Virus record (IMG/VR): IMGVR_UViG_3300031857_000014
Strand: one strand, 5' to 3'
Length of the DNA stretch: 64,000 nt
DNA from: a virus
Lineage: Duplodnaviria > Caudoviricetes
Position numbers and translations under genes: made by a program. This document shows positions 2,168 through 46,358 of this stretch, piece by piece. Numbering within the stretch: position 1 is the first letter of the stretch; the number at the start of each line of letters is the position of its first letter. Under the pieces are notes generated by a model. The model was given only the letters and a program-made list of their open reading frames with translations, was not told the origin of the DNA and made no database searches.

Positions 2168-3409
2168 TTATTTTGTTGCAATCATATTTTGATTTGATTT
2201 TAAATTTTTAGTTATATTTTCAATTTCTTTCATTTGTTTATCACTTATTTCCCATAAATCAACTAAATATTGCCAAGGTTTATTATTAAATGCATTTATT
2301 TGTTGGGAATATTTCTGAATAGAATCTTTTGGAATTCTGATAATTCCATCAATAACTAAAGCAAAAATTATTGCCAAACTTTCAGATGTGTACATTTCAC
2401 CTTTTTTATCACTTGACACCAATTTTATTTTTTCTTTTGATTTTTTATAATCTGATAAAAACTTTTCATCAGGGTTTTGTATTTCAGCATTAGACGCTTC
2501 ATTATATGATATTGGAACACCACATGAATCAGTTACCATAAGATTTAACCACTGACCAAATTTCATTCTTTTACCTATAGTAATAAATGTTGGGTTTAAT
2601 AAAATTTTACCTTTATTATTTTTTATAGTTATGTGTAACGGATCACTATGACAACCACCTTCAGTATCCGTGAAACATTGTAACGTAAAATTAATTTTAT
2701 CCTTTTGTGTTTTTAGTATTTGTGAAACATCATCACCACTTATTTTTAAATTAACAATTCTTGGACCTCCATCAGATTGATTATTTAAATTTATGACATC
2801 CCCACCACCACCATCAAGTTTTACTGGTACTCCGTTCGCGAACATTTTAAACAACGCTTCATCACATTGATGATATGGATATGTAACACCTTGCGAACCT
2901 TTGTAATCAACAATAATTTGTAAATCAACTAAACAAGGGTTATCTTTCGGACTACTACCCAATAACTTCAATCTGACATACTGATTATCAGTATAACCTT
3001 GAAAAAACGCACCTTTTGAAGGTTCCCACTCAGGTCCTTGGGCTCCTAATGACGTTACTTTTGTCTGAATATTGTTTAACCCTTTTGAATCTATATAACG
3101 TTTAATTTCTTCGGCTCTTTTAAGTGATAATTCACCAGGTTTTAATCCTCCACGATTAGGTACTTTTGATTCAGATGAAATTATCTCAATTACATAACTA
3201 CCAGTTGGAGACATTCTTTTTTGAAAATCTAAAATTGCGTTATCAATCTCGTTACTGTCTTTAATTTTATATTGTCCCGAAGAAAATGATTTATTTATAT
3301 TATACTCAATTTCGTCTCTTTCTTCTTTTGGTGAACCGTATGTCGCCTCGTTTATAAATTTATCAATTACTGTTTTAAACTGACTTTCAGTGATAATTAT
3401 CTTTCTCAT
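2168..3409 (-). CDS. putative virion-associated protein with degenerate OmpA-C-like domain
   Basis: Leader MRKIIITESQFKTVIDKFINE; then FSSGQYKI...IEIISSES...LSLKRAEEIKRYI..KG, which follows the OmpA-C pattern. Confidence 0.55.
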   Translation of the reverse strand: MRKIIITESQFKTVIDKFINEATYGSPKEERDEIEYNINKSFSSGQYKIKDSNEIDNAILDFQKRMSPTGSYVIEIISSESKVPNRGGLKPGELSLKRAEEIKRYIDSKGLNNIQTKVTSLGAQGPEWEPSKGAFFQGYTDNQYVRLKLLGSSPKDNPCLVDLQIIVDYKGSQGVTYPYHQCDEALFKMFANGVPVKLDGGGGDVINLNNQSDGGPRIVNLKISGDDVSQILKTQKDKINFTLQCFTDTEGGCHSDPLHITIKNNKGKILLNPTFITIGKRMKFGQWLNLMVTDSCGVPISYNEASNAEIQNPDEKFLSDYKKSKEKIKLVSSDKKGEMYTSESLAIIFALVIDGIIRIPKDSIQKYSQQINAFNNKPWQYLVDLWEISDKQMKEIENITKNLKSNQNMIATK

Positions 3410-3425
3410 TAACTATAAATATCGT

Positions 3426-3971
3426 CTAAGAAAGATATAATCTCTTGTTATTGTACTGTGCAACAGGATTGTTTTCGGCAATAAGTCCATATTCCTTTTT
3501 TACGTTTTCGTATATTAATTTACAATCATCATTTATATAATTTGAAATGATATTACAAAAACCATAATTAGATTCATCAACTACTGTCTGTTTTGTTCCG
3601 GGTAACCCACAATACATCGCTTCACCTACCTCCGATATAAACATACCCGAATAAAATCCTTTAAGTTGGTAACGGTTAACGAATTGATCTGCATTACACC
3701 AAATAAAGACACTATTATCTTTTTGTTCTAATAACGAGACAGTTTCTCTATCTATAATAAATCCATGTGTTTTTGAGAATTGTCCCACGGAAAATAAACC
3801 ACTCGGAGAACCGTGACCCATCATCATAACTCTATCGTGTGACTCAATAAGTTCATGTAATTCTTGTTTACTAATTCCACCAGTGATTACAGTTTTATCT
3901 GGTATTGGGTTATAAACAATATCCAAAAAACTTGTTGATTCATCCTTAGGATGTACAATTAATGTCTTCAT
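3426..3971 (-). CDS. hypothetical protein, possible clan CD (gingipain/caspase-like) cysteine peptidase
   Basis: VMMMGHGS and downstream FIWCNAD resemble the His-Gly...Cys dyad. Confidence 0.4.
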   Translation of the reverse strand: MKTLIVHPKDESTSFLDIVYNPIPDKTVITGGISKQELHELIESHDRVMMMGHGSPSGLFSVGQFSKTHGFIIDRETVSLLEQKDNSVFIWCNADQFVNRYQLKGFYSGMFISEVGEAMYCGLPGTKQTVVDESNYGFCNIISNYINDDCKLIYENVKKEYGLIAENNPVAQYNNKRLYLS

Positions 3972-3986
3972 AAAAATTTATTTTCA

Positions 3987-4016
3987 CAAAGTTAATAAAA
4001 AAATATTATAAACAAA
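3987..4016 (-). promoter_or_regulatory. Bacteroidetes-type promoter (-33 TTTG / -7 TAnnTTTG)
   Basis: Minus strand TTTG(4016-4013)-18 nt-TAACTTTG(3994-3987), 15 nt before the ATG at 3971. Confidence 0.5.
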
Positions 4017-4044
4017 AAAAATCCCCAAACATTTTGTTGGGGAT
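4014..4044 (-). terminator. intrinsic terminator
   Basis: ATCCCCAA...TTGGGGAT stem followed by a T7 tract on the minus strand, downstream of the 4069 gene. Confidence 0.7.
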
Positions 4045-4068
4045 ATAATAATATATTAATAACTTTAA

Positions 4069-4362
4069 TTAGTTACCACAAAGATTAGCGAAAAACAGAT
4101 TGATTACCAATGTAATAAAGAAAACCATCCATGTTTGATTGATGTCAGGTTTTATGTTGTCTTTATCGAAATTACCAATGTGTTTAGGTCTTGTTCTAAA
4201 ATTAGTAAACCCAAACATTAATCCTGTACCGATAAATGCGGAAAGAATTGCGATTGGTGCTAATATTACTCTGTGTTCACTATCGAAAAAACTTACAGAA
4301 ACAATTGGTGCGGGTGCCCCAACCATTAAAAATAATGCTATTATAGTTTTTATCGGATTCAT
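4069..4362 (-). CDS. membrane protein (3 TM)
   Basis: 97 aa with three hydrophobic segments. Confidence 0.6.
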   Translation of the reverse strand: MNPIKTIIALFLMVGAPAPIVSVSFFDSEHRVILAPIAILSAFIGTGLMFGFTNFRTRPKHIGNFDKDNIKPDINQTWMVFFITLVINLFFANLCGN

Positions 4363-4363
4363 A

Positions 4364-4594
4364 TTAATCTGTTTTTAAAACTATATCAGGATTTGGTTCA
4401 TCCGCATTTATAAAAACATAAAAATTACCTTCTTTGTCCTGACCTAAAGTTAATTCTTCATCATTAGCTCCAGGTAGTTCTTCCGGTTGAATTTTTGTAT
4501 CAAAGTCATCAAACTCTGTTGGTTGTTCTTCTTCGAGAATAGTTTTTACGATATTTTCAATATCTTGTTGTTTTAATTTAATTACTCTTGACAT
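4364..4594 (-). CDS. small acidic protein with shared leader
   Basis: MSRVIKLKQQDIENIVKTILEE leader. Confidence 0.6.
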   Translation of the reverse strand: MSRVIKLKQQDIENIVKTILEEEQPTEFDDFDTKIQPEELPGANDEELTLGQDKEGNFYVFINADEPNPDIVLKTD

Positions 4595-4596
4595 AA

Positions 4597-5895
4597 TTAC
4601 TTTTTAAATTTTTTCATTAATTTATTAAATAAAAAATTTGTTTTTGATTCATCCAAACCTTTTTTGACATCATATTGTCTGATGTTTGCAATTCTTAATG
4701 CTGAGTTTGGACTTATTGATTCAATCAAATTTTTAAAATCTTTAATTGCTTCTTTTAATCCTAATTGTACAGGTAATTGAGACATAATTGTTTTTTGTTC
4801 ATTTACCGGTTCTTCAGGATCAAGTTGTACAGTTTTAGTTACACCAACACTTCTATCGTCTAAAATACCACCTTCTTTCAATTGTACTGAGTAGTCAACA
4901 TCTTTTAGTCTTGTGTTAATTGAATATTCTTCAGGTGATTTTCTACCAAATTTATTTCTCATACTAATTTTCCATATAAAAGTGTCACCGCGTTTTTCAC
5001 CAGTAATTTCAAAAACCATTTTTAATGAAACATCAAGTTTAATTTGTGAAAGACCTAATGCATCAAGTTCATATTTCGGTGTTTTACCTAAATATCTTTC
5101 TTGATTTTTTTTATCTTCTTCCCAATTTCTATAAACTTTATTAAATTGTCTAGCAAGATAATATGTACTCATTTCAGGTGTTTCAACACCTTTAATTCTA
5201 GCCAATACTGACTTTAAAAAATCTTCTGCTGATTTATATGAATTATATGTATGTGCTCTAAATTCTATTCTATCATTTGTCCATGTTGGGGTGTATTTAT
5301 CCAAATACGGTCTGTCAACCGCTTTTATTTCAGGTATACTTCTTTTAGCTAATACTTGAGTAAATCTTTTACCTTCAGAAGTATCACCAAATTCCGCTTC
5401 TATAATTGGGTTGAATATTCTTTTAATTGTTTCTTGTTCACTTTGTTTTGCACCCGTTGGGACATACGCAACATTAAAACTTTTCTCCTCTCCACCCTCA
5501 ACATCAGGTACAGGTTGTGTCTTAATTGGTTCTGTTGGTCTTGGTTGATAGTTAGTTGCTTTTTTATTGGTCCATCTTAAATTTGCTCCGTATTTTTCTT
5601 TTAATGCTTGATATTCTTCAGGATTTTCTCTTATAAACTCAGCAATTTCGTTACCATTAGTAAACAAAACAGGTTCTTCATTAATCATCCAACCAATTAC
5701 TACTGCCCCCTCTATTGGTTTTTGTTTAACACTCACCTCATCTTTCCAACCAATGTATACTTTATTCTGATATTTTATTATTACTCTTTTACCAATTGGC
5801 TTACCCTTTCTAGTTTGTAACTGAGCCATTTCGTCAACTTCCATTGATTGACTTTCTCTGATTAATCTAAATAATTCTTTTTTATTCATTTCCAT
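4597..5895 (-). CDS. hypothetical protein, putative internal virion protein
   Basis: 432 aa; leader MNKKELFRLIRE|SQSMEVDE|MA; TATTTATA upstream (5930-5937). Confidence 0.6.
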   Translation of the reverse strand: MEMNKKELFRLIRESQSMEVDEMAQLQTRKGKPIGKRVIIKYQNKVYIGWKDEVSVKQKPIEGAVVIGWMINEEPVLFTNGNEIAEFIRENPEEYQALKEKYGANLRWTNKKATNYQPRPTEPIKTQPVPDVEGGEEKSFNVAYVPTGAKQSEQETIKRIFNPIIEAEFGDTSEGKRFTQVLAKRSIPEIKAVDRPYLDKYTPTWTNDRIEFRAHTYNSYKSAEDFLKSVLARIKGVETPEMSTYYLARQFNKVYRNWEEDKKNQERYLGKTPKYELDALGLSQIKLDVSLKMVFEITGEKRGDTFIWKISMRNKFGRKSPEEYSINTRLKDVDYSVQLKEGGILDDRSVGVTKTVQLDPEEPVNEQKTIMSQLPVQLGLKEAIKDFKNLIESISPNSALRIANIRQYDVKKGLDESKTNFLFNKLMKKFKK

Positions 5896-5966
5896 AATAT
5901 TATGTCTCTTTTTTTAAATGTTCATTGTATATAAATAGATAAAAGTTTGGAATAAATTATTTAAAA

Positions 5967-7454
5967 TTAAACCATTCCGGTATCTCCTGTACTAGTTGTT
6001 GATGGTAAAACAGTCTTAGCAACTCTATTTGCTTCTCCAGCGAGTTTATTTAAACTACTTTCATAACCTGTTGCTGACGCGTATCTATTTCCACTATGAT
6101 TTACAAAATTCTGTATCAAATCACTTGCGGTTTTACCTTTCCCTAAATAATTTCTTGCGATAAGATTATAATACGCGTTTATCCCTGATTGAACTTGACC
6201 ATGTTCAATGTTGGCTCCACTATCAGTGTTTCCAACATTAAAAGGATTTTTAGTTCTAATTGGTCTGCTATTTGGGTCTTTGTTACCTATTCCTCCCTCA
6301 GCGGCTAACTGAGCCAAAGCCAATTCAGCGGGAACAAATCTTTTGTATTTATCAAACGCTTCTCTCGCACCTTTAGCCATCATTTCACCAGTGATTCCCA
6401 ATAAATTAGGTTGACGATTATTTATAAATTTTTGACATATTTCTGCATATGTTTTAAACCCTTCGTCAGTTGTTAAATCTAAATCACTAAACGCCGCTCC
6501 ACCACCTGTGGTTATACTATCAATATACTTTTTTAAATCTTCTGAAGTAACTCCCTTTTGTTTTAATAATTCCAAAAGTTTAGTTAACATTTCAGGTGTC
6601 GCTTTAATATTTCGTACACTTACTGAACCACTTCCACCTGACGATTTTCCACCACCTTCAGGTTTACCTTTACGATATGAAACATGAAAATGTCCTCCGG
6701 TAGCCAATTTTGTTGGGTTTGTATATTCATCTATAAAACTGAAACCATTGTACTTACTTTTATATTGTTTTAATAATTCAATAAATGAACTATGACAGCT
6801 TGAAGGTAAGGTAAGGTCAACAGCAAGTCCTTTTGTGTGTAAACTAGTATAACTTGTTATGTTTTGGTGAAATTGATCATTACCTGAAGTGAATGTACCT
6901 ACACATTCAGGATACTTTTCATTAAATTCGGCAATAAGCTCATTAACTATTTTTGAAAGATCACTACTGATTTCACCTCCACCAGATAACTGTCCTGACT
7001 TCTCTTTCCAACCATATTGACCAATTGCAATTTGTCTTATTGCTTCTGCACTTTCATTTACATTGTCTTTGATATTGTTATCGGATTTGAATTTTTCAAC
7101 CGCTGACGCTGTCTCAGGTCCAAATAGTCCATCGACACCATGTTTAGGTAATTCATAACCCAGCATCATTAAACCAATTTGCATTGATTCAACCTCTTTT
7201 TGGTAAGTCATTGAACCTTGTCCTTGTTGAGATAATCCACCACCATCTGCTGCATTTTTGATGTTATCAAAGAATTGTTGTACATCGGTAGTAACTAAAT
7301 CCGCCTTCTTAGGGTCATCCACTTTTTTGATATCATCTTTACCTGATAACCCGACCTTATTTAAGATATTATCTATAAACGATTCGTTTAGAACCTTTTT
7401 ACCATAGGTTAACCCATGGATTCTTTCTAAGTCTTCTTTAAGAGTCTTTTTCAT
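5967..7454 (-). CDS. multidomain peptidoglycan hydrolase (PG-binding + M15-like peptidase + lysozyme/glucosaminidase-like)
   Basis: LGYELPKHGVDGLFGPETASAVEKF (PG_binding_1); SLHTKGLAVDL...GGHFHVS (M15-like); LAQLAAEGG...NPFNVG...YA (lysozyme-like fold). Confidence 0.7.
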   Translation of the reverse strand: MKKTLKEDLERIHGLTYGKKVLNESFIDNILNKVGLSGKDDIKKVDDPKKADLVTTDVQQFFDNIKNAADGGGLSQQGQGSMTYQKEVESMQIGLMMLGYELPKHGVDGLFGPETASAVEKFKSDNNIKDNVNESAEAIRQIAIGQYGWKEKSGQLSGGGEISSDLSKIVNELIAEFNEKYPECVGTFTSGNDQFHQNITSYTSLHTKGLAVDLTLPSSCHSSFIELLKQYKSKYNGFSFIDEYTNPTKLATGGHFHVSYRKGKPEGGGKSSGGSGSVSVRNIKATPEMLTKLLELLKQKGVTSEDLKKYIDSITTGGGAAFSDLDLTTDEGFKTYAEICQKFINNRQPNLLGITGEMMAKGAREAFDKYKRFVPAELALAQLAAEGGIGNKDPNSRPIRTKNPFNVGNTDSGANIEHGQVQSGINAYYNLIARNYLGKGKTASDLIQNFVNHSGNRYASATGYESSLNKLAGEANRVAKTVLPSTTSTGDTGMV

Positions 7455-7497
7455 ATTATTATAAATATCCTTAAATTTCTATTTAAATCCGAACATT

Positions 7498-7929
7498 TTA
7501 CATTTTTACCCTACCCCCACCAATTATGTTTTTTCTGTAATTGTTTTCGTCCAAAGAACTTATTTTAACTCTATCACCTCTTCTTGGGGCATGTAAAAAT
7601 TGGTCGTTTCCTAAATAAATTCCACAATGCCACCCACTAGGACTTAATTTACTTTTAAAAAAAATTATATCACCCTCTGTCATATTTTTTAAACGAACCT
7701 TGCCCATAAATCTGTATTGTTTTGGTGCAGTTCCAGGTATAATAACATGAAAAACGTCTTTATAAAATCTTTGGGTTAATTTAGAACAATCAATACCCTT
7801 GATAGTACTTCCCCCAAATTTATACGGGACACCAATCCATTTATTCATAAAAGAAGAAAACTTAGGATTATATTGTCCATAACTAACAGTGGAAAATAAT
7901 ATGCACAGCAAAAAGATGAATCTTTTCAT
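7498..7929 (-). CDS. NlpC/P60 (C40) endopeptidase with signal peptide
   Basis: GVPYKFGG...GIDCS, GDIIFF, HCGIYLG, FLHA; signal peptide ending VSYGQ. Confidence 0.88.
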   Translation of the reverse strand: MKRFIFLLCILFSTVSYGQYNPKFSSFMNKWIGVPYKFGGSTIKGIDCSKLTQRFYKDVFHVIIPGTAPKQYRFMGKVRLKNMTEGDIIFFKSKLSPSGWHCGIYLGNDQFLHAPRRGDRVKISSLDENNYRKNIIGGGRVKM

Positions 7930-7953
7930 AAAGTTTTTAATATAAATATCTTT

Positions 7954-8082
7954 TTACTTTATAAAAGTGTCCAAAAATTCACGGTATTCCTTCTTGTTGT
8001 TGATTGTGTTCTGTATAATACTAACCCATACCCAACAGAAAATGGATAAGAAAATAAACATAGAAATAAAAAACATAATCAT
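7954..8082 (-). CDS. 42 aa single-TM peptide, not in the ORF track
   Basis: Hand translation MIMFFISMFIFLSIFCWVWVSIIQNTINNKKEYREFLDTFIK*; ATGA overlap with the stop of the methyltransferase. Confidence 0.45.
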   Translation of the reverse strand: MIMFFISMFIFLSIFCWVWVSIIQNTINNKKEYREFLDTFIK

Positions 8083-8696
8083 AATAGACAACTTTTAAGT
8101 ACTTCTATACATAATTCGTCAGGTATCTTACTTCTTTCATATGCGTTTGACCTACCTTGTGTACCTGTCTTTGATCCCCTTGGTGCTGCAACGTGACACG
8201 GTGAGCCATTTTTACACATTTTCCGAGGAACCCATAATTCACTATTAGTCCAAATATCTGTTGGTTTCATCCTTTCATCACCATATTGACAGTAAGTGAC
8301 AGTGTTCCTTTTGTACTTACCCATAAACGGCATTTTACGGAGAACACCTCTTGGATTTTCTATAAACCAAAACTCCGGTTCAAAATGTTCAATAAGTTCT
8401 AATGTCTTCTTAACTAATTCAATACCCAATCTAGCGGTTTCAGTTTTAGGTATGTACGCACCTTTTCCTCCACCCCAATGGTGACCAATAGCGGCAACAC
8501 TAAAACCAGTACATGGTGGTGATGCCCATATTATATTAGGTTTAAATGGTACTTTAGTAACATCAAAATCTAAAATACTTACAGGATAATGTATTCCCTC
8601 AAATTGAATCAAATCTGAAGAGAATACCTCCATACCTAGTTTTTCTGCTGCTTTGCCAACAGACCGACTACCCGCGAATAATTCAAGAACTTTCAT
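8079..8696 (-). CDS. compact DNA cytosine-C5 methyltransferase
   Basis: LELFAGS (motif I), WASPPC (catalytic PC), FIENP (motif VI), YCQYG..RMKPTDIW. Confidence 0.8.
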   Translation of the reverse strand: MKVLELFAGSRSVGKAAEKLGMEVFSSDLIQFEGIHYPVSILDFDVTKVPFKPNIIWASPPCTGFSVAAIGHHWGGGKGAYIPKTETARLGIELVKKTLELIEHFEPEFWFIENPRGVLRKMPFMGKYKRNTVTYCQYGDERMKPTDIWTNSELWVPRKMCKNGSPCHVAAPRGSKTGTQGRSNAYERSKIPDELCIEVLKSCLL

Positions 8697-8953
8697 TAAA
8701 ATTTATCTGCGATTTTAACGATTGTTTCTTCGTCTTCTTTTGAAAGACGATTCCACATACCGTGTAGTTTACTTAATTTGTGTTCAAAAATTTGTTCCCC
8801 CGCACTCATCTTTTCGTTGGATTTCTCACGTGGTTTTTCAATGTGACCATCATGAATTAGTGCTTCAATCAATTCTTGAATTTCTCCGCTATTACATGAA
8901 CTTAAAAATTCGTTTACATCAATATTGATGTCTTCAGCATAAAATGTTGGCAT
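8696..8953 (-). CDS. hypothetical protein
   Basis: 85 aa ORF coupled to neighbours. Confidence 0.55.
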   Translation of the reverse strand: MPTFYAEDINIDVNEFLSSCNSGEIQELIEALIHDGHIEKPREKSNEKMSAGEQIFEHKLSKLHGMWNRLSKEDEETIVKIADKF

Positions 8954-8964
8954 AAATTATTGTT

Positions 8965-9258: not shown

Positions 9259-9298
9259 TTATGTAAAAAATATAACAAAAAATATTCGGAAAAAAAAA

Positions 9299-10711
9299 TT
9301 ACTTAATAATATCGTACTTTTCTCGTTTCCATTGAATTTCAGGGTTTTTCAGAAACCTGTCTGTTAATACTTTTATTGGTTCCTGAAAAATATTGTCAAC
9401 TGCGGTATTCGCTTTACCATAGGATTGAATTAATAATCCTTTTCTATATTGTAAATTAATCCTTTTCCTTTTGTGTTCTAAAGAGACGTATAAATAAATT
9501 GCACCATGAACAAATTGATTTGACATACAATTTTTCATTTTAATTCCTTCTAATGCGAATTCTTCTTCAGAGATAATTAGTTTTGGTTTAAATGATAAAT
9601 TATTAACTATTATCTCTTCTTCAATCATTTTAACAAAATCAATTGGTAAATCATATCGAACTTTATATCCTCTGTTATAATGTCTTCTTACTGAAGACCA
9701 TTGTGACAATAAATTTTCAAACTCTAAATCATTTTTAGCGATAAACCTTAAGTTTATTCCTTTAGTTTCCAAAAACAATCTTGTATTCAAAATTTTATTT
9801 ATTGAGTATATAAGAGTCTCATTCATCATCGATATCTTTTCCCAATTGTTTATTAGTCTAACCATGTTGTTTTTCTCAAATTCATTTTTTAAAACATGGC
9901 CCTTTTTATTTGGTGATACCTCAAAACAATTTTTTTTCCAATCAATTTTTTTTAAGTAATCCATATAATTGTCACCAAAAAGATTACATAAAAATTTTAA
10001 TGAACTTATCTGTACTTGTTGTTTTGTTGTGTTTAATTCTGAAATTATATATTTTGATTTTATTCCTAATTCATCAAGAACTGCGGGTAAAAATTTATAA
10101 TCATTTTTTTTCAACCATTTTGTTTTGGGATAACTATTTTGTATATCAAAATAAACCCCGTCATGAGGTTTAATATTTTTGCAATCTAAGTGGTAATCAA
10201 TTATTAAATCGTAAAAAGGATTAACAGAATATTTTTCTTTGTATATTTTGTTTTTGTAGAAATCTGATTTGAAATTTTCTTTTAGTTTATTATAAATTAT
10301 TTCAAAAATTTTATCAGTGGCCTTTTCATATTTTACACCCCAATACTTGTGTTTTCTTTCACCTTTTAATAAACCTGATTCAGTTAAATCTTCTAACTGT
10401 CTGAAATTATTTTTTTTGTTTTTTATTAAATCTCTAAATAATTTTTCATCAGTCAAATTGTGATTGTTTATTTTATAAGATAAATGAATATCTCCGGTAA
10501 CAATATCTAAAATAAACCCGTGATGAAACGTGATTGACTTTTTTTTATTAAACGCATTAAATTCAGTGTAAAAATATCCGTTGTACTCTAAAAACTTCTT
10601 ATCTCCTCGAATTTCAATATCACACGTTGATTTATTTTTATTAGATTTCTTTTCTCTTTTTTCTTGCCTATGTTTAAATAAAATATCCATATATAAAATA
10701 TATATGGACAT
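9299..10711 (-). CDS. PcfJ-like domain protein
   Basis: C-terminal EEEFALEGIKMKNCMS...IYLYVSL motif. Confidence 0.55.
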   Translation of the reverse strand: MSIYILYMDILFKHRQEKREKKSNKNKSTCDIEIRGDKKFLEYNGYFYTEFNAFNKKKSITFHHGFILDIVTGDIHLSYKINNHNLTDEKLFRDLIKNKKNNFRQLEDLTESGLLKGERKHKYWGVKYEKATDKIFEIIYNKLKENFKSDFYKNKIYKEKYSVNPFYDLIIDYHLDCKNIKPHDGVYFDIQNSYPKTKWLKKNDYKFLPAVLDELGIKSKYIISELNTTKQQVQISSLKFLCNLFGDNYMDYLKKIDWKKNCFEVSPNKKGHVLKNEFEKNNMVRLINNWEKISMMNETLIYSINKILNTRLFLETKGINLRFIAKNDLEFENLLSQWSSVRRHYNRGYKVRYDLPIDFVKMIEEEIIVNNLSFKPKLIISEEEFALEGIKMKNCMSNQFVHGAIYLYVSLEHKRKRINLQYRKGLLIQSYGKANTAVDNIFQEPIKVLTDRFLKNPEIQWKREKYDIIK

Positions 10712-10728
10712 TATGACTTTTTGTAGTT

Positions 10729-12591
10729 TTAAATCGGTAAAATATCAAATAGATGTTCTTGAAGTGTTGGTTCAATTTCTCTATATATTTCAACACCATT
10801 AATGATGATTGGTACTTTTCTTTTTTCAATATTATGTAACATCCCCAATCTAGCATATTTTTTTGTCTTTACTAATATTTCATTTAACGCTAGTTCCATA
10901 TCACCTGGTGCTGGTTTGTTACAAAAGTGTCTTGCTTGAATACATTGTCCTGTTTGACAATCAATTTCACAAGTTATTCTATCAGATTTATCTTCAGTTC
11001 TTATAGATATTATGATTGATTTATCTTTATCCGCATAAGTTGCAACACAATGATGCATAAAATTACCTTCCTCAATATATTCTTCTTCTCTCTTTAATAT
11101 TACTGGATAAAAAGTTATTTCACCATAACTACAATTATCAAGTTCTATTTTTAAATCTACAGGTTTTTGAACATCATCTAACATTTGTTGATTAAACTTA
11201 TATTCGGTAACCCAACCCTTATTAATTGCTGCAACCATTTTCGCTAATTCCTGATGTTCATTATGGAAGGTAGTATAATCCGTTGCTCTCATTTTTATTT
11301 GAGGGTCATATTCTCTTATTTTTTGTAACATATTGAAATGGTCTGATAAAAGATTTACAAACTCTTCATCAATATGAAGATGGTTATCCCTATTTACAAA
11401 CTTCTTTCTACCACCAATTATTATTTTCAATATATTATCTTTTTCTTCTTCACTTATTTTATAGTTGTGATTTTTAAACTGAAAGAAATTTGCTTTGAAC
11501 ATACTTGCATTCATAATCCAAGTGTCCGGATTATTTAAACTAATAAATGCGTCAGGGTTTATATTACCAACATATTTCTGAAAATTGTCACCAAACAAAT
11601 AACACAACCTAGCAAGTGCAGGTATATTGATTTGGGTATACTTGTGTAAAAATTTATTAAGAACTTTTGATTTTATTCCATAAAAATCTAAAATAGACGT
11701 GATTAATTTTCTATCATTCTTTTTCAAATATTTCTCCGTAGGGTAATGATAAATTAATAGGTCTTTATAGTTATCTGGTGTTTTAATTTTTTTGGTTTCA
11801 ATGAAAAACTTTAGTAAATTATCAAAAATGTTTTTTTCATTTATATTAGGTACATTGAAAACATCCGATACGACCTTATAGAATATTTTGTTATCAAATA
11901 TTTTTTTTATGTCTAATTTCTCTTGTACTATCCCTCTATCTGTATAATTGGAAATATTGAAAGGAGTGTTATTCGTTTTTACCATTTGTTCTAACTCTAA
12001 AAATGAATTAACCCTAAATCTTTTTTGTTTTATATTTCTACCATCTTGAATGTTACTTATTGTAAAATTACCTGTCACCATATTCACTGTTAATGAAATA
12101 ACTCGATAACTCTTTTTAAAATAAATTTCGTTAACATCCCGCATTTTATTGTGAACATATAATTTGAATGTTACCTTATCCCCATGTCTTCTTATTGACC
12201 TTTCTATTGTTGTAAAATGAACAGACGAAAAGGGGTTACCAAAATGTCTTTTTATTTGTCTTTCTTTATCGGTTATGAAAGTAGTATCATCATAGACATG
12301 TATGTTATCGGTTGAACGGAGTTTTTTTGAACACACAAAAAGATTTATGTTTTCACCATTTGGATTATCAGAGTAAAAATATTTTGTTCTTTTTTTATTT
12401 TTGGGATAATGTAAGTAAGTGGATTTAACTTTATTAGTATTAATATTCCGTACTATTGCTGGTTGTATAAAAAAATCATCCATTCCACTGATAGGGTCAG
12501 AAATATATTCTTTTCTGTTCTCTAATGGACAGTAATTCTTAAATACGTTTATACTGGCGTAATTGATTCGTTGGGTTAGTAAATCTTCCAT
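10729..12591 (-). CDS. PcfJ-like domain protein (paralogue of 9299-10711)
   Basis: EEEYIEEGNFMHHCVATY...IISIR...TCE...Q. Confidence 0.65.
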   Translation of the reverse strand: MEDLLTQRINYASINVFKNYCPLENRKEYISDPISGMDDFFIQPAIVRNINTNKVKSTYLHYPKNKKRTKYFYSDNPNGENINLFVCSKKLRSTDNIHVYDDTTFITDKERQIKRHFGNPFSSVHFTTIERSIRRHGDKVTFKLYVHNKMRDVNEIYFKKSYRVISLTVNMVTGNFTISNIQDGRNIKQKRFRVNSFLELEQMVKTNNTPFNISNYTDRGIVQEKLDIKKIFDNKIFYKVVSDVFNVPNINEKNIFDNLLKFFIETKKIKTPDNYKDLLIYHYPTEKYLKKNDRKLITSILDFYGIKSKVLNKFLHKYTQINIPALARLCYLFGDNFQKYVGNINPDAFISLNNPDTWIMNASMFKANFFQFKNHNYKISEEEKDNILKIIIGGRKKFVNRDNHLHIDEEFVNLLSDHFNMLQKIREYDPQIKMRATDYTTFHNEHQELAKMVAAINKGWVTEYKFNQQMLDDVQKPVDLKIELDNCSYGEITFYPVILKREEEYIEEGNFMHHCVATYADKDKSIIISIRTEDKSDRITCEIDCQTGQCIQARHFCNKPAPGDMELALNEILVKTKKYARLGMLHNIEKRKVPIIINGVEIYREIEPTLQEHLFDILPI

Positions 12592-37223: not shown

Positions 37224-37245
37224 AAAAAAGGGGGTTAAACCCCCT
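37224..37245 (-). terminator. intrinsic terminator
   Basis: AGGGGGT-TAA-ACCCCCT stem plus T-tract on the minus strand, overlapping the glutaredoxin stop. Confidence 0.65.
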
Positions 37246-37824: not shown

Positions 37825-37825
37825 T

Positions 37826-39790: not shown

Positions 39791-39805
39791 GTAAATAAAT
39801 ATGTT

Positions 39806-40648
39806 TTAATAATTCATTATCAACAATTCAGTACCTTCGTTCTGTGTACCGTCTTTTTTAGCTGCTGCCGCTTTTTTGAAATTCTTATTTTCCCACCTAT
39901 AATTAGTTTGTGGGAACCAAACATTAAGTAGAGGAAAATCATAGTATGATAAACTAAATTTTCCTTTAATGTCTTTTAAACAATTTGCCAATCTTTCATG
40001 GTCATTTCTGTCAAAATCATGATTTGAATAATAATTTTCCGTCTTCCAATATGGTGGATCCATATAAAAATACGTGGTTTCAGAATCGTACTTTTTAACA
40101 ACCAATTCAAAATCCATATTTTCAATAAATGTTATTTTATCAAAATGTTCTCTATATTTTGGATGTTTCAATTTATCCATGAAAATAAGAACCTTACAAC
40201 GATATTTTCCTTTATAGTCGGTATATGATGATGTTTCAGGTTTTGAACCAGAAAAAACTTGCGTTAATACATAGACATATTTACACGCAATCTCAAATTT
40301 GTTTTCTTCTGTTATCACCAAATTATCAACAAATATTTCGGATTGATATTGTTTAAACATTTGTGCGTACTCGGGTGGTGTATCAACTACACCAAGTTGT
40401 TGACAAGGGTATTTAGATAATTCTTCCCAAAGTCTATCATATTCCTTAGTACAACTAAATAAGTTTGCATTAAGACCATTAAAGTCATTATAAACCACAG
40501 TTTTAAGATTTGGGTACTTAGACAGGTCCATATTAAAAAAGACCCAAAACATACCGGAAAACCCCTCTACATAGGTTTCTATATCATTTGGAATGAAAGG
40601 GACAATCCATTTACCAATTCTTGCTTTACCACCAATATAAGATATCAT
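39806..40648 (-). CDS. Dam/D12-class DNA adenine methyltransferase
   Basis: Start MISYIGGK (40648; the track over-extends it); YVEGFSG, VYND, YMDPPY, ELLIMNY. Confidence 0.82.
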   Translation of the reverse strand: MISYIGGKARIGKWIVPFIPNDIETYVEGFSGMFWVFFNMDLSKYPNLKTVVYNDFNGLNANLFSCTKEYDRLWEELSKYPCQQLGVVDTPPEYAQMFKQYQSEIFVDNLVITEENKFEIACKYVYVLTQVFSGSKPETSSYTDYKGKYRCKVLIFMDKLKHPKYREHFDKITFIENMDFELVVKKYDSETTYFYMDPPYWKTENYYSNHDFDRNDHERLANCLKDIKGKFSLSYYDFPLLNVWFPQTNYRWENKNFKKAAAAKKDGTQNEGTELLIMNY

Positions 40649-40731
40649 TGTTCTGTTTTTAAAAATTATAAACAAAAAAAACGATAAAAAAAAATGCTTT
40701 GAAAATTGAATAAAATAGTATATATTATGAT

Positions 40732-40893
40732 ATGGCATGTTCAAATTGTAAACAAAAAAACAAAGAAGTTATTGGTGAAGAAAAATTTCAAAGAAGAGCC
40801 GACTTTGTTGATAAATGGGGTGGTTGGTTTATCTTAGTTTGGTTTCTTTTGGGTTTATATGGTCTTTTCTCATTGATATCTAAATTTTTATGA
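40732..40893 (+). CDS. 53 aa CxxC + TM peptide, not in the ORF track
   Basis: Hand translation MACSNCKQKNKEVIGEEKFQRRADFVDKWGGWFILVWFLLGLYGLFSLISKFL*; ATGA overlap with the 40890 gene. Confidence 0.65.
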   Translation: MACSNCKQKNKEVIGEEKFQRRADFVDKWGGWFILVWFLLGLYGLFSLISKFL

Positions 40894-41528
40894 AAAACGG
40901 AAAATATTTCATAGTTCTTTTCTGTAATAAGAAAAGAATAAAAATTTTATTCCGGTGTATGAAAAGAACCACTGTTTATGAGTATTGGAGAGAATTCAAG
41001 ACTCAGAAAAAACCTGCATTTGTTCAAGAACAAGGTGGTAAAAGACAACAAAAACTTCACTTTGAATTAGGACTTATTTTCCCAAATAATAGATGGGCCA
41101 CAAAAACTTATGTCAGAGATAGTTTAGGTAGAAACGTAGAAGCAAAAATTGAAGATAATAAGTTCAGAATTAAAGAAATTATTCCATATTGGAAAGAAGA
41201 ACTTATTTATGATTTTAACACTAAAAAAAGAATTCGATACCATCAAATGATGGAATATATTAATTCAGTAACAGAAATTGCTCAGATATTCACACTTAAT
41301 AATAAATTGTTTGTTCAGATAGAAAACGATGTGAGATTATTTGGTAACAAAAATATTGAAGACGCTAACAGATTATTTGAAATTGTAAAAAATGATTTAC
41401 TAAGTAAAAAGAAAACAAATTTTATATTTGTAAAAGATATTACAACACACCAAAGAAGTTTACTCTATAAAATGTTGGAAGATAAAGGGTATAAAAGAAC
41501 AGAATTATTTAGACACTACTCGTATTAA
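40890..41528 (+). CDS. hypothetical protein
   Basis: 212 aa basic ORF. Confidence 0.6.
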   Translation: MKNGKYFIVLFCNKKRIKILFRCMKRTTVYEYWREFKTQKKPAFVQEQGGKRQQKLHFELGLIFPNNRWATKTYVRDSLGRNVEAKIEDNKFRIKEIIPYWKEELIYDFNTKKRIRYHQMMEYINSVTEIAQIFTLNNKLFVQIENDVRLFGNKNIEDANRLFEIVKNDLLSKKKTNFIFVKDITTHQRSLLYKMLEDKGYKRTELFRHYSY

Positions 41529-41748
41529 AAAGAATATCAACCGTTCCAATAGTTATATTAAAACTTGATTTAGGTTTTTCTAATTTTTTTGCATATTTCT
41601 GTTCGACTAAATTGAAAACTCTGTCAAATTCATTTTCACTTACTTCTACAATTATTGTTCTCGATTTAGATTCAATATTCATTTTTTCCAATAAATCTGA
41701 TACTATAGCCAATTGATTTAATAAATCACCTTTTTTTTCCATATCCAA
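41509..41748 (-). CDS. hypothetical protein
   Basis: 79 aa ORF. Confidence 0.5.
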   Translation of the reverse strand: MDMEKKGDLLNQLAIVSDLLEKMNIESKSRTIIVEVSENEFDRVFNLVEQKYAKKLEKPKSSFNITIGTVDILFNTSSV

Positions 41749-41923
41749 ATATTAACAATATTTTTTGTAACATTGTTTTTTTAGGTTCGGGTGCGAACAT
41801 TTTTGTTTTGTCTAATTTTTTTATATCCTCAATCATTTTCTCCTTGTGGCTCTGTATCTCCAAATTGTCCTTCGACATCTCCTTGTTCAACCATTCCAAT
41901 CCTTGGTGTAATCTCTTGTCCAT
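41726..41923 (-). CDS. hypothetical protein
   Basis: 65 aa ORF overlapping its neighbours. Confidence 0.45.
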   Translation of the reverse strand: MDKRLHQGLEWLNKEMSKDNLEIQSHKEKMIEDIKKLDKTKMFAPEPKKTMLQKILLIFGYGKKR

Positions 41924-42284
41924 AATCGTTCAATAAATTTATATCTTTTAATTTACTTAATGATTCTTTTTGAAATAACTCTTGCAATTCTTTTACTTTC
42001 TGCTGAAACAATCTTTGTTTTTCTTCTTCCTCTTTATTAATCGTGATAATTTCATTCGCACAACTTATTACAACATCGTATCCTTCCTGATTGGCATTAG
42101 AAATTAATGACAACAAACTAAATTTATCGTTTTTGTCTTGAACTTTAGTTTTTACTGACCTATAAGGTGCAACTATTACATCATATTTCCAATTTAGAGG
42201 TAATTTAATATCTAAACTTACATTGTTATCAATTTCCCGTAATGAGAAAAAATATGGTTTTAGTGATTTTATTGTTTCGAACAT
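41829..42284 (-). CDS. hypothetical protein
   Basis: 151 aa ORF. Confidence 0.55.
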   Translation of the reverse strand: MFETIKSLKPYFFSLREIDNNVSLDIKLPLNWKYDVIVAPYRSVKTKVQDKNDKFSLLSLISNANQEGYDVVISCANEIITINKEEEEKQRLFQQKVKELQELFQKESLSKLKDINLLNDYGQEITPRIGMVEQGDVEGQFGDTEPQGEND

Positions 42285-42291
42285 AAATGTG

Positions 42292-42471
42292 TTAAATGAG
42301 AAAATAAGTTATAAAATAAGATATTGCAAAATATAAGAAAACTTGATTAGTATTAGAAACTTTTAACACTGATGGATTGTTATCCATTAATTTTAAAACG
42401 AACTCCACAACAAATCTTAAAATATATACAATACTTAAAATAAATAAAAATGTTTTAATTTCCTGTGTCAT
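42292..42471 (-). CDS. 59 aa 2-TM protein, not in the ORF track
   Basis: Hand translation MTQEIKTFLFILSIVYILRFVVEFVLKLMDNNPSVLKVSNTNQVFLYFAISYFITYFLI*; fills the gap exactly. Confidence 0.55.
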   Translation of the reverse strand: MTQEIKTFLFILSIVYILRFVVEFVLKLMDNNPSVLKVSNTNQVFLYFAISYFITYFLI

Positions 42472-42643
42472 GTTTTTTAATTTCGTCTAAAATTTCCTTC
42501 CTATATTTAGGAATTAATGTTTTTATTTCTTGTGCGTATTTTCTTGCCCTAATAGATGCACTGTGATTACCTTTATCAAAAACTTTTCGGGTTTCAACAG
42601 ACATTTTTTCAACAAGTTCTTTTATTTCTTTTAACGTATCCAT
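42455..42643 (-). CDS. histone H1-like Hc1-family nucleoid protein (short Bacteroidetes type)
   Basis: KVFDKGNHSASIRARKYAQEIK...RKEI matches the short Hc1 pattern KFxxKGNxAAxxRARK. Confidence 0.7.
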   Translation of the reverse strand: MDTLKEIKELVEKMSVETRKVFDKGNHSASIRARKYAQEIKTLIPKYRKEILDEIKKHDTGN

Positions 42644-42683
42644 AATAATATCCTGTTTTAAATATTAATATACGGATTTTTTT

Positions 42684-43139
42684 CTACTTTTTCAAGTTAT
42701 TTTCAAACATTTTATAAACTTCTATCACCACATCAAGTTCGGATCTGGTTTTTTGATATTTTAAATCAAATAACTTGAACAAATACTCAGATATTTTTAC
42801 TTTTTCACCATCAAGTTGAACAAAATAATATGCTTCTAAGAAGAAATTCCAAAAATACTCATAATGATTACCCCGGGATTTAAAATGTATTTTTTCCTTA
42901 TTAAATGAATTTATAATTCTGTCCCAACACCATGTAAAATGACCTCTTTGATCCTTTTCATATATCAATACGTCAGGACCTAAATAAGTTTCTTCAACTA
43001 AATCGTATAAGGAAATTAGAAAGTCGTAAAAAAGTTCTGTTTTTTCACGACTTATATTGTACGCTTTACACCAAATATCAATTTGATGTTTATAACTTTC
43101 TGATGTAATATACTCCATAAAATCCTCATTATTTTCCAT
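42684..43139 (-). CDS. hypothetical protein
   Basis: 151 aa aromatic-rich ORF. Confidence 0.6.
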   Translation of the reverse strand: MENNEDFMEYITSESYKHQIDIWCKAYNISREKTELFYDFLISLYDLVEETYLGPDVLIYEKDQRGHFTWCWDRIINSFNKEKIHFKSRGNHYEYFWNFFLEAYYFVQLDGEKVKISEYLFKLFDLKYQKTRSELDVVIEVYKMFENNLKK

Positions 43140-43188
43140 AACCTATATTAAATTTAATATAAGGATAAAAGAAAATAAAAAGAAGATA

Positions 43189-44634
43189 TTACTGAGTTTT
43201 TTTGTTATAAGATAACAAGTGTTTCATTTTATTCATTTCTTCTAATAAAACACCTGGCACTTTTTTTTCTGATTCTTTAACAATTTTTACAGGTTGAGCA
43301 TCTTTGTTGTACATCGGTGCTTCTTTTCTCTTCTTCTCTTTTCTTTCTGCATTTTTAGCGACATTCTTACCTAAATCACTTTTAACAACATTTGCAGCAT
43401 CCTGTGAATTACCCATAGTTGAATGACCTTCTAACGCCTTTTTTAATCTATCCTTAAATTTATCTGATGGTTCAAATTCATATCTTAAATCTTGTAATCC
43501 ACCTCCTCTATTATCACTTATAAATTCTTCTTCTTCACTTGTTCTTTTTACAGTTGCTTTTTCACCTTTACCAATTTGTTTAGGGAATTCTGGATTGTCA
43601 TTATTGTTAAAAGAAGCTGCTTTTTTCATCTTATCACCAACACTCTTAATATATTCGTCATTGTCTTTTTTACTTCCTTTTTGTGCTTTTTTGGTAACTT
43701 CTAATCCACGAACAGATTCTTTTACCATACCCTTAATAATATCAACTAATTCAGACTCAGTTACACGAATTTTTTTCTTTGATTCCATCATTGAACCACA
43801 TTCCATACACATTCCTTCTTTCATTTCACTTCCACACTCATTACATGTTTGTTTTTCTTCATACATGTCTGTTTCATTCACTTCATCTTCAAAATCATAA
43901 TCATCATCTCCCATATCTTCAATGTGAGGTGTTTCCATACCTGTACCACCACAACCTTTACATTCATGACCCATAGAGTCCACACCAGCACCTTGACATT
44001 TCATACACTCAAGGTCACTAAAGTCATCACCTTCAACATGTGAAGGGTGTAATTCCATTAAATGACGATGTAAAGACTCTTTTAAACTCTTTTCTGAAGT
44101 TTTATTTGTTATTCCAAAATACTCTTCTTCACTTATTTCTTCTTCTTCCATTTGACCACATTCCATACAATCTTCTCCTTCACCCATTTCTTCTTCATAA
44201 TTCATCATTTCTTCTTCTTCCAAACTTTGCCATGATTCTTTTACGTCATATTCTTCACCGTCAACGGTAAATGTATCTTCTCCAGCTTCTTTAGCTTTAT
44301 TTAATGCGGCAACAAATGCATTACCTTCCATTGGTTCTTGATGTTTCATATCTGTATTTTCTTTTTCTTGTAGTTTTTCACCCATTTCATCTAATTTATC
44401 AATCATTTCTTCGTATGATTCGTACATACCTTTTTCGATTATAAATTGTTTACCTGGATGGTCTTTTTTATAAATATCTAAATGACTTTCAGCTTCTTCT
44501 TTTGTTTTAAATGTATCAACTAATTGTCCTTCACATTTTATGTGAAACACATCTTTTCCTTCGTTGAGAATATTCTTCTTAACCTCATCGTAAAGAAAAC
44601 TTTCCACAATGTTCATTAATTCATTTGCTTTCAT
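43189..44634 (-). CDS. acidic putative prohead core/scaffold-like protein with zinc-finger motifs
   Basis: E/M-rich; CMKCQGAG...CKGCGGTG; CMECG twice plus CNECG; internal KKIRVTESELVDIIKGMVKE. Confidence 0.5.
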   Translation of the reverse strand: MKANELMNIVESFLYDEVKKNILNEGKDVFHIKCEGQLVDTFKTKEEAESHLDIYKKDHPGKQFIIEKGMYESYEEMIDKLDEMGEKLQEKENTDMKHQEPMEGNAFVAALNKAKEAGEDTFTVDGEEYDVKESWQSLEEEEMMNYEEEMGEGEDCMECGQMEEEEISEEEYFGITNKTSEKSLKESLHRHLMELHPSHVEGDDFSDLECMKCQGAGVDSMGHECKGCGGTGMETPHIEDMGDDDYDFEDEVNETDMYEEKQTCNECGSEMKEGMCMECGSMMESKKKIRVTESELVDIIKGMVKESVRGLEVTKKAQKGSKKDNDEYIKSVGDKMKKAASFNNNDNPEFPKQIGKGEKATVKRTSEEEEFISDNRGGGLQDLRYEFEPSDKFKDRLKKALEGHSTMGNSQDAANVVKSDLGKNVAKNAERKEKKRKEAPMYNKDAQPVKIVKESEKKVPGVLLEEMNKMKHLLSYNKKTQ

Positions 44635-44635
44635 A

Positions 44636-45592
44636 TCAAATAAATATCTGTTTTATTTCATTTAATACTAAATTTTCGATTTCAGTCTTAGGAATTCCTG
44701 TTTTTTTAGATATTTCATCGATAGATTCCCTTAAAACTTCCAATGCGTTAATATCACCCTGATTACAATAAGGAAATTTCTTACATTTATCCTTAATTTT
44801 TATAAAAACTCCACCGGGACCACCCCATTTAGGGAAATTCTTATCTTTAACCGCTCTACTGTTCTTAATTGAGTCTGGTCCTTTAATTTCTAACGGATTT
44901 TTACGACCTTTTGTTGTTGAACCTAAAAAAGGTACATCGTAAGAACCTGAAGAACTTGCATCTGTTGCTTCATCCAATTCAGTATCGAAATTTGGTATAT
45001 TAGTGATTTTTCTCTTAATTACTTTCCCACCAAAAGCACCAGCTTCAAATGAACCAGATGAATCTGCACCCATCGATTCTTTTGCCTCCACTTTTTTTAA
45101 TTTAGTATAATAATTTGGGTCTTCCGATAGGTGATCAAGTGCAATTTCTTTTGCTTTTTCTTTACTTTTGGTATGTTCCATTTCAACCTTCATTCCCATA
45201 CTCAATTGCTTTTTCAATAAAGTAATCATATTGTCAGTATCATGGTACTTTTTTTTACTATGTTTCTTAGCAATATCTTCAAGTGTTTTATTATCACTTA
45301 AACCACCTTTTAATTTTTCTCCTTCATTAACTTTTTTCTTTCTACCTTGACAATGTGCTCTTTGACTAAACCCTTTAGGGTTATTGCAATCAATTGAACG
45401 TTTGTATTTTTGTGACCATTTTTCTTCTACTTCTGTCTTTTCTTCACTTCCTTTAGAAATATATTCATCAATCCAAGATTGTAATTCATTTACGTTTGGA
45501 CTATGGTCTTTACCTTTTTTTCTTGTAATATCCTTATGTGCTAAACTCACTAATTTTAATATATCTTCTTTAGAATAATTTTTCTTTTTCAT
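44636..45592 (-). CDS. putative head protein with DUF5661-like module
   Basis: MGMKVEMEHT...AKEIALDHLSEDPNYYTKL; KWSQKYKRSIDCNNPKGFSQRAHC. Confidence 0.6.
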   Translation of the reverse strand: MKKKNYSKEDILKLVSLAHKDITRKKGKDHSPNVNELQSWIDEYISKGSEEKTEVEEKWSQKYKRSIDCNNPKGFSQRAHCQGRKKKVNEGEKLKGGLSDNKTLEDIAKKHSKKKYHDTDNMITLLKKQLSMGMKVEMEHTKSKEKAKEIALDHLSEDPNYYTKLKKVEAKESMGADSSGSFEAGAFGGKVIKRKITNIPNFDTELDEATDASSSGSYDVPFLGSTTKGRKNPLEIKGPDSIKNSRAVKDKNFPKWGGPGGVFIKIKDKCKKFPYCNQGDINALEVLRESIDEISKKTGIPKTEIENLVLNEIKQIFI

Positions 45593-45831
45593 TATCTTAC
45601 ACTTTTAAGGGATTGTTCCCAAAATGACTTTTTTTGCCATAATGTTTTGAACAATTCGACAACAACTTTAGTAGATAAGTCTACGATTTTATCGTCTATC
45701 TTTTTCGTTCCCAATTCGTCTTGAATTACTTTAACAACGATTTTATGTGCTTGTGTTGAGTCCATAAAATCTTTAATCTCTTTCTTAACTATTTTTTCAA
45801 TTTCTCTCTTATCTTCGTTTGTTAGTGCCAT
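45592..45831 (-). CDS. hypothetical protein
   Basis: 79 aa helical ORF. Confidence 0.6.
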   Translation of the reverse strand: MALTNEDKREIEKIVKKEIKDFMDSTQAHKIVVKVIQDELGTKKIDDKIVDLSTKVVVELFKTLWQKKSFWEQSLKSVR

Positions 45832-46358
45832 TATACATTTGTTTGTCTTTGTATTATCAGTGGTTCCATACCATCTTTAAACACCTTCTCAAATTTTACT
45901 AACTTATCTAATAGTATCATAACTTCTTCAGATAACTCTAACATGTCACTATTCATATACAAACCTCCATCCTCTCCAGCGATAAATACAAAATTTATCT
46001 CTTCATCGGTTAATGTACCATCTAATCTTATTTGTTTTTCAGTAATCGTAAAACCAGGTTCAAAATCAACTATTTGAGAAACTTGTGTTCTAAAATTATC
46101 AATCATAGATGAAATACCTGTTTTTTGTTTTTCATCAAGTTTCATATCAGATTTATCACTGGATATTAATTTGGTCTCGACATCATTTATTACAATTACG
46201 TCACTTTTTTCATCAGTTCCGTCTGTACTAAAATCTGTTTTTTCTTCCTCCTCTTTTATAATGTTTTGAGGATTCTTAGATTCTTTAATTGTTCTGATGG
46301 TTTTAAGCATACCTCTTATCTCATCGTAACTATTATTTGTTTTCTTCTGTATTGACAT
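45831..46358 (-). CDS. hypothetical protein with leader
   Basis: SYDEIRGMLKTIRTIKE|S...IIKE|E. Confidence 0.6.
   Translation of the reverse strand: MSIQKKTNNSYDEIRGMLKTIRTIKESKNPQNIIKEEEEKTDFSTDGTDEKSDVIVINDVETKLISSDKSDMKLDEKQKTGISSMIDNFRTQVSQIVDFEPGFTITEKQIRLDGTLTDEEINFVFIAGEDGGLYMNSDMLELSEEVMILLDKLVKFEKVFKDGMEPLIIQRQTNV

Follow-up and report, generated by a model that had tools for sequence, protein, structure and literature searches.

Exchangeable amphipathic helices ending in hydrophobic-x-Glu as putative prohead-targeting tags in a large, probably T4-type phage of Bacteroidota

Introduction

Six proteins encoded in a 64,000-nucleotide stretch of DNA from an uncultured lake virus of the Caudoviricetes (record IMGVR_UViG_3300031857_000014; the whole stretch is called the window throughout) begin with a short, charged amphipathic helix that ends in isoleucine, leucine or valine, any residue and glutamate (I/L/V-x-E), and one of them carries a further segment of this kind internally. 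A preliminary description of the window regarded the segments as one portable leader that loads diverse cargo, a lysin and an OmpA-like protein included, into the phage head and is removed at maturation. The locus thus raises the question of whether such helices direct proteins into the head, serve contacts elsewhere in the virion, act in export, or reflect the composition of the genome. The first of these answers is favoured here, with modest confidence: by comparison with related phages, the leaders probably act, as in T4, as propeptides whose helices target the core of the prohead.

The window corresponds to positions 25693-89692, minus strand, in a 100,147-base IMG/VR virus record with 29% G+C and a CheckV completeness of about 30%, so that the full genome would measure about 300 kb. 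Among the products of the record are baseplate wedge proteins like gp25 and gp6, giant tail-fibre-like proteins, a DnaB helicase and a ribonucleotide reductase; it also has genes for a sigma factor and a ClpP-like protease, as well as a glycosylation block of 14 kb. It probably represents a fragment of a ~300-kb T4-type phage of Bacteroidota. Neither the region nor its proteins of 413, 481 and 495 amino acids (aa) had a match in the collection of phages from GenBank, and searches among viral contigs yielded, for the 413-, 481- and 175-aa proteins, no close relative other than an ortholog of the 175-aa protein on contig L110. A close relative in culture was likewise not found; among the matches listed, the nearest cultured phage is Flavobacterium phage vB_FspM_immuto, with 44% identity over the C-terminal 40% of the capsid protein. 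The genes of the related loci used for comparison are simple open reading frame (ORF) calls made for this analysis.

Leader segments of the window

The six N-terminal peptides and the internal copy read as the preliminary description had quoted them, on the minus strand; for the 432-aa protein the leader sequence was correct, yet the ORF starts two codons earlier, as MEMNKKELFRLIRE. All seven segments end in I/L/V-x-E, and the six that begin at Met1 are 14-26 residues long. They are listed below, a slash marking the predicted cut.

3347-3409, minus strand: type A leader helix MRKIIITESQFKTVIDKFINE/A of the 413-aa OmpA-like protein (gene 2168-3409; type A profile E = 8e-7)
4529-4594, minus strand: type A leader MSRVIKLKQQDIENIVKTILEE of a 76-aa acidic protein (gene 4364-4594; best profile match in the fragment, E = 6e-7)
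5854-5895, minus strand: 14-residue family-specific leader MEMNKKELFRLIRE/S of the 432-aa protein (gene 4597-5895)
7383-7454, minus strand: 24-residue family-specific leader MKKTLKEDLERIHGLTYGKKVLNE/S of a 495-aa multidomain lysin (gene 5967-7454)
43717-43776, minus strand: internal type A helix KKIRVTESELVDIIKGMVKE/S of the 481-aa protein, with MME/S upstream and VKE/S at its end (profile E = 0.01)
44560-44634, minus strand: N-terminal leader MKANELMNIVESFLYDEVKKNILNE/G of the 481-aa acidic zinc-ribbon protein (gene 43189-44634)
46281-46358, minus strand: candidate leader of 26 residues, followed by /S, of the 175-aa protein (gene 45831-46358)

The predicted proteins left after cutting would start with ATYGSPK (413 aa), SFIDNILNK (lysin), SQSMEVDEMAQLQTR (432 aa), GKDVFHIK and SVR (481 aa) and SKNPQNIIK (175 aa).

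Portable helices of types A and B

The clearest member of this set is type A, a portable helix of 20 residues with the consensus MKKIKLTESDLKRLVKKVLSEQ, which stands in the fragment at the N-termini of the 413- and 76-aa proteins and internally in the 481-aa protein. A profile built from the leaders of relatives only, and then run on the 118 genes of the 100-kb record, placed these three copies at the top with the E-values listed above, and did not match the leaders of the 495-, 432- and 175-aa proteins or the N-terminus of the 481-aa protein. The seven segments therefore form at least four sequence classes, and the idea of one common leader motif fails, the type A profile reaching three of the seven. 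Significance for the type A trio was attained only with this broader profile; a two-sequence seed profile and an ortholog-only position-specific scoring matrix were set aside, as they ranked the 481-aa internal copy second and the 76-aa N-terminus third but inside the range of shuffled maxima. The first 27 residues of the 76-aa protein are also similar by BLASTP to the leaders of a ~155-aa family of relatives.

An iterated type A profile covered 1,210 genes on 87 sequences, namely 86 related loci (about 1 Mb) and the window's record, and returned no decoy hits. In the related loci type A heads at least nine unrelated body clusters: OmpA-like proteins, a 119-aa PG_binding_1 protein, the ~155-aa family (48 members), the window's 76-aa protein, and proteins of 184, 299, 108, 193 and 84 aa. 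A cluster of 230-aa endonuclease VII-like proteins, which the iteration had also drawn in, was discarded as probable drift onto a helix of a helix-turn-helix.

In the OmpA-like homologs one body carries two main leaders, either type A (MKTIILTE.Q.K.VID..INE) or a second helix, type B (MIKQNWNIS.EE..RIL.LHESATK..YLINEQ). On the same body there also occur a hybrid of the two (P0031) and a tag of 10 residues, MIKLTDLLNE (P0046/47). Such an exchange of leader types fits an address tag better than a specific structural contact. Type B likewise stands on several different bodies (loci L031, L045 and L057), and was not found in the 100-kb fragment. The proposed portable tag on diverse cargo is thus upheld for types A and B, and not for the lysin and 432-aa leaders.

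The AlphaFold model of the 413-aa protein places the leader in a helix of residues 8-23, with a predicted local distance difference test score (pLDDT) of about 50, followed by a disordered linker (residues 24-32, pLDDT about 35) and by well-folded OmpA-like and beta-rich domains; the leader and linker score 35-52 against 75-93 for the bodies. The OmpA Pfam match of this protein covers residues 42-126 and lies below the cut-off. In the model of the lysin, a loop containing E24 separates helices 5-17 and 26-33, and a disordered stretch (37-48) comes after. In both models the leaders thus appear detached from the folded bodies.

The predicted cleavage site and head genes of relatives

Two contigs reached through the OmpA-like homologs (L005 and L007) carry a head module of the T4 type. 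Their genes run in the order terminase, T4-type portal, bS21, Peptidase_S77 (L005:4983-5699), DUF4494, acidic scaffold, Gp23 and OmpA-like, so that an OmpA-like gene with a type B leader directly follows the capsid gene. The gp21-type Peptidase_S77 occurs together with homologous cargo in L005, L007, G001, G003 and G004, and PF03420 was detected in three of the four large records of relatives.

The capsid protein belongs to a large family, with at least 598 matching contigs, and all 76 full-length major capsid proteins recognised in the related loci read ...YENQAS.LINE/A(S/A). This LINE/A sits 11 residues before a conserved block, starting at residue 72, which aligns with residue 93 of T4 gp23, that is, residue 28 of its mature form; from this alignment LINE/A is likely to be the capsid maturation site. 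The leaders of the window show the same ending in FINE/A, VLNE/S and ILNE/G, and the end of type B, NQYLINE/Q, nearly copies the NQASFLINE/A of the capsid protein.

The scaffold of the relatives has conserved ends and contains tandem acidic DEDEMMES units, up to nine in number (L007:6447-7955; G001:C1:113506-115074, minus strand), and each unit holds a potential Met-x-Glu/Ser protease site. Complex prediction for this scaffold and a type A leader gave a score of 0.00, which counts neither for nor against binding.

A ClpP-like protease of the window (50450-51127, minus strand) adjoins an SbcC-like gene and matches the PHROG 'head maturation protease' with E = 7e-34. It lies far from any head gene and may be a second protease beside the expected gp21 type.

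The zinc-ribbon family and its internal helix

The 481-aa protein belongs to a family of 413 members (E below 0.001, in a library of 50%-identity clusters). Its N-terminus, MK.SELNNII..VLSEEVK..ILNE/S, is conserved in at least 17 representatives and bears a weak likeness to type A (E = 0.02-1 in relatives). The internal type A helix is present in 114 of 150 representatives, after the zinc ribbon. Upstream of it a hydrophobic-x-E[STAGN] of the M(Y/N/M)E/SKKK type lies within 11 residues in 94 of 115 helices. The (V/I)-x-E with which all captured helices end was largely imposed by the search pattern; what informs is the residue after it, with S, A or T at this place in about 95 of the 105 helices listed. 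No similarity was found between the 481-aa protein and the scaffold of the relatives.

Family-specific leaders

The lysin carries PG_binding_1 and a weak Glucosaminidase match in Pfam, and has 960 homologs at E <= 1e-5; nearly all of the best 120 of these 960 start MKKTL.EEL.RIH.ITYGK..h.E. In all 116 homologs with the RIH anchor, [ILVY]xE stands at a near-fixed offset, while the C-terminal catalytic domains vary between glucosaminidase, M23 and lysozyme. In the 432-aa family, a hydrophobic-x-E about 14 residues in is kept in 25 of 25 homologs with the N-terminal anchor (e.g. MEISKEKLMSIISE/S), and an acidic DEMG or DEMA stretch comes after it. For the 175-aa protein one close ortholog was found (L110, 83% identity), in which TINE/S is kept and the acidic stretch after it differs; its leader had no type A profile match, and an atlas search with the protein gave no useful match. 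By these comparisons, the lysin and 432-aa leaders appear family-specific with a near-invariant hydrophobic-x-Glu, and the 175-aa leader would belong to the set as a candidate only.

A further candidate for a tagged protein lies outside the window in the same record: a 111-aa protein (G000:C1:97785-98120; L003:8586-8921) starts MKMFDLINE/SEKSEF..., a 9-residue tag of T4 length with the capsid-like LINE ending, and has the octamer ATATTTAT 11 nucleotides (nt) before its ATG.

A late-promoter-like box

This octamer, ATATTTAT, resembles a late promoter element and stands 5-7 nt before the ATG of the 413-, 495- and 481-aa genes:

3415-3422, minus strand: ATATTTAT box before the 413-aa gene, 5 nt from its ATG
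7461-7468, minus strand: ATATTTAT box before the lysin gene, which heads the row lysin, 432 aa, 76 aa
44640-44647, minus strand: ATATTTAT box before the 481-aa gene

Elsewhere in the record the same box is found at -11 to -14 before the gp25-like baseplate gene and the genes of 1439- and 719-aa proteins, and in relatives at -11 to -37 before portal, protease, scaffold and leader-bearing genes. At -10 to -15 it precedes three of the six leader genes and six of the 112 others (Fisher P = 0.006, a post hoc test). The octamer is not over-represented in the window overall, with 16 copies against 22 expected, and only its position before genes is notable.

Chance tests and contrary evidence

A number of observations weigh against the proposed function. 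Shuffled N-termini of the 118 genes served as the chance expectation, and Glu-rich amphipathic helices often terminate in hydrophobic-x-E through their composition. With Glu at residues 9-29, [ILV]xE occurs in 41 of the 118 genes against 35.9 +/- 4.9 in shuffles (P = 0.17); [ILV]xE[SAG] near the N-terminus occurs 8 times against 5.7 (P = 0.20); the spacing hydrophobic-x-x-hydrophobic-hydrophobic-x-E, as in the capsid-targeting sequence (CTS) of T4, occurs 11 times in the first 30 residues against 7.1 (P = 0.09); and the capsid-like ending hydrophobic-hydrophobic-N-E occurs 4 times against 1.8 (P = 0.09). The preliminary description had held that a motif no more frequent than in shuffled N-termini would speak against its own proposal, and for the loose leader ending in I/L/V-x-E this is what was found in the fragment. 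In three related partial genomes, the T4-like spacing is enriched about twofold (37 against 17.7 among 334 genes, with none of 300 shuffles reaching 37).

The remaining contrary points concern the tags and the head genes themselves. Portability is, by sequence comparison, established for types A and B only, and when about 1.4 Mb of sequence from relatives was searched with profiles of the lysin-type and 432-type leaders, no other cargo was detected. Type A cannot be described as an N-terminal leader alone, since its place in the 481-aa family is mostly internal and in a 133-236-aa family beginning M..KKQIKE/ATGSG it lies at the C-terminus. The genes of the ~155-aa type A family stand in a row with that of a gp5-like baseplate hub protein (L005 and L007) and not with head genes. 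That the endonuclease cluster entered the iterated profile indicates how easily such helices are over-collected. Finally, neither Peptidase_S77 (PF03420) nor Gp23 (PF07068) had a match within the ~30%-complete 100-kb record; the head module of this phage would therefore lie outside those 100 kb, and a gp21-type protease is inferred from relatives.

Other features of the window

A likely lysis block flanks the leader-gene cluster (1085-2106 and 7498-7929, both minus strand). It comprises an M15-type peptidase (1557-1973), three small membrane proteins and an NlpC/P60 protein (7498-7929), the last with a classical signal peptide, unlike the leaders.

A 318-aa protein (44636-45592, minus strand) has a DUF5661 segment at residues 128-171, seemingly an insertion, as a 235-aa ortholog on the 83%-related contig (L110:4761-5468) is without it. 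A 190-aa protein (54404-54976, minus strand) consists mostly of repeated EKIVEVIKEVPVE-like units, and long Pro-Thr linkers (TPTPTPEPT...) occur in a membrane protein (46913-48133, minus strand) and in a 955-aa putative structural protein (60541-63408, minus strand). Two neighbouring proteins of 470 and 620 aa (9299-10711 and 10729-12591, both minus strand) are paralog-like, with stretches in common that include KKNDxKxL...LDxxGIKSK.

Discussion

The system that invites comparison is that of T4, in which gp21 cleaves after L/I-X-E, a change of the Glu to Asp stops processing and leaves targeting intact, propeptides measure 7-65 residues, and Alt is trimmed at its C-terminus too. The first 10 residues of IPIII (MKTYQEFIAE) are enough for packaging, residues 4 and 7 serving targeting and residues 8 and 10 processing, and reviewers have suggested that T4-like phages can load varied proteins by means of the CTS (PMC9026906, PMC8442874, PMC9958956). 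The CTS and propeptides of IPI, IPII, IPIII and Alt are removed by gp21 (Mullaney and Black 1996, as reviewed in PMC9026906; PMC8442874). The leaders described here are likewise short N-terminal tags on otherwise unrelated proteins, they end in hydrophobic-x-Glu and match the hydrophobic pattern of the CTS (Y4, F7, I8 and E10 in T4), and the relatives possess both a gp21-type protease and a capsid propeptide with the same ending. The differences are also considerable. Alignable similarity to MKTYQEFIAE is lacking, the spacing hydrophobic-x-x-hydrophobic-hydrophobic-x-E alone being common to both (e.g. LMSIISE of the 432-aa homologs); the tags here are longer (14-33 against 10-19 residues) and of several interchangeable types; the helix is also found internally, with predicted sites on both sides, and at C-termini; and the cargo includes peptidoglycan binders and a 495-aa hydrolase, whereas that of T4 consists of small basic proteins. 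The tags are not homologs of the T4 CTS, yet on present evidence would work like it. The T4-like capsid targeting first put forward is thus favoured by portability, by the protease, capsid site and gene order of relatives and by the models, but has to be given up as a single motif and as a strictly N-terminal tag.

A second parallel is offered by the giant phages phiKZ, 201phi2-1 and SPN3US, in which a gp21-like protease removes the propeptides of inner-body and ejection proteins with S/A-X-E as its site (PMC5694885, PMC7411985; summarised in PMC9026906). These, too, are large phages with many head-internal proteins processed after Glu, several sites per propeptide and cargo ejected into the host; there, however, the P3 residue is small, where here it is hydrophobic, the lineage and host differ, and no common portable tag has been described.

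Encapsulins have terminal cargo-loading peptides, and phage scaffolding proteins a coat-binding helix at the C-terminus. As is proposed for the present helices, these short terminal helices, at either end of the cargo, direct a protein inside an HK97-fold shell; they differ in binding to the shell protein itself and in staying uncleaved, and there is no homology.

Three other explanations have to be set against prohead targeting. The helices might be elements for docking or oligomerisation elsewhere in the virion, for instance at the baseplate hub, in the tail lumen or in an ejection conduit, or serve general protein contacts, staying uncleaved and without any targeting to the head. The gene row that the ~155-aa family shares with the hub protein would suit such a role, as would the internal and C-terminal copies of type A and a cargo that binds or cuts peptidoglycan as many tail-tip proteins do. 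This explanation is nevertheless judged unlikely, in view of the OmpA-like gene directly after the capsid gene of the relatives, of helix ends that coincide with a conserved hydrophobic-x-Glu matching the predicted propeptide site of the capsid, and of leader types that are exchangeable on one body. Slightly more doubtful again is the view that, outside the type A trio, the leaders are unrelated family-specific helices without common function, whose endings reflect the Lys/Glu/Ile-rich composition of a phage with 29% G+C. It draws on the lack of enrichment over shuffles in the fragment, and on the lysin, 432-, 175- and 481-aa N-terminal leaders, which match neither type A nor type B; the lysin and 432-aa profiles find no further cargo, and conservation in the lysin runs on beyond the Glu. 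Against it stand the Glu, near-invariant over 116 and 25 diverged homologs, the twofold enrichment of the T4-like pattern in related genomes, the common late box before three of the genes and the clustering of these genes with type A genes.

According to the third explanation, which is held to be very improbable and the least likely of all, the leaders are non-classical export or lysis-timing signals by which cell-wall-active proteins reach the peptidoglycan when infection ends. The 413-, 76-, 432- and 495-aa genes do adjoin the lysis-type block with its M15 peptidase, small membrane proteins and NlpC/P60 protein, and their cargo is cell-wall-active yet without a signal peptide. Read from their sequences, however, the leaders are charged amphipathic helices without the hydrophobic core of about 10 or more residues expected of a Sec/Tat or lipoprotein signal; many of the proteins that carry type A are unconnected with the cell wall; and in relatives the genes stand among those for head and baseplate.

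Prohead targeting of the T4 type remains the best explanation, given the S77 protease of the relatives, the LINE/A of their capsid protein and the OmpA-like gene right after the capsid gene. Docking, cutting and location in the head are all inferred, the evidence for cleavage being comparative, and the events would be as follows. Late in infection a set of proteins would be made, each with a short amphipathic helix, a flexible linker and a body, among them the OmpA-like peptidoglycan binder, the three-domain peptidoglycan hydrolase, the acidic zinc-ribbon protein and small proteins. The helix would dock each protein into the scaffolding core, which the capsid shell encloses as it assembles, and a gp21-type serine protease would cut after the Glu of the hydrophobic-x-Glu at the helix end, or on both sides of the helix in the 481-aa family. 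The cuts would free the cargo inside the head, from which it would leave with the DNA at the next infection, and its cell-wall-active members could then act on the peptidoglycan.

A broader proposal is made tentatively: jumbo T4-type phages of Bacteroidota may load peptidoglycan binders and cutters into the capsid by means of interchangeable helices (type A, type B and tags of 10-14 residues), and the 481-aa cassette with its two sites may split a precursor into two cargos and a discarded helix. The literature searched contained no description of such tags for uncultured phages of Bacteroidota. If the proposal is true, T4-type heads would carry a much broader cargo than the few small internal proteins of T4, one with large enzymes and binders of the cell wall that could open the envelope of Bacteroidota from inside the infection conduit. 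Exchangeable tags of this kind would then amount to a simple sequence rule by which injected proteins could be predicted in hundreds of uncultured lake phages.

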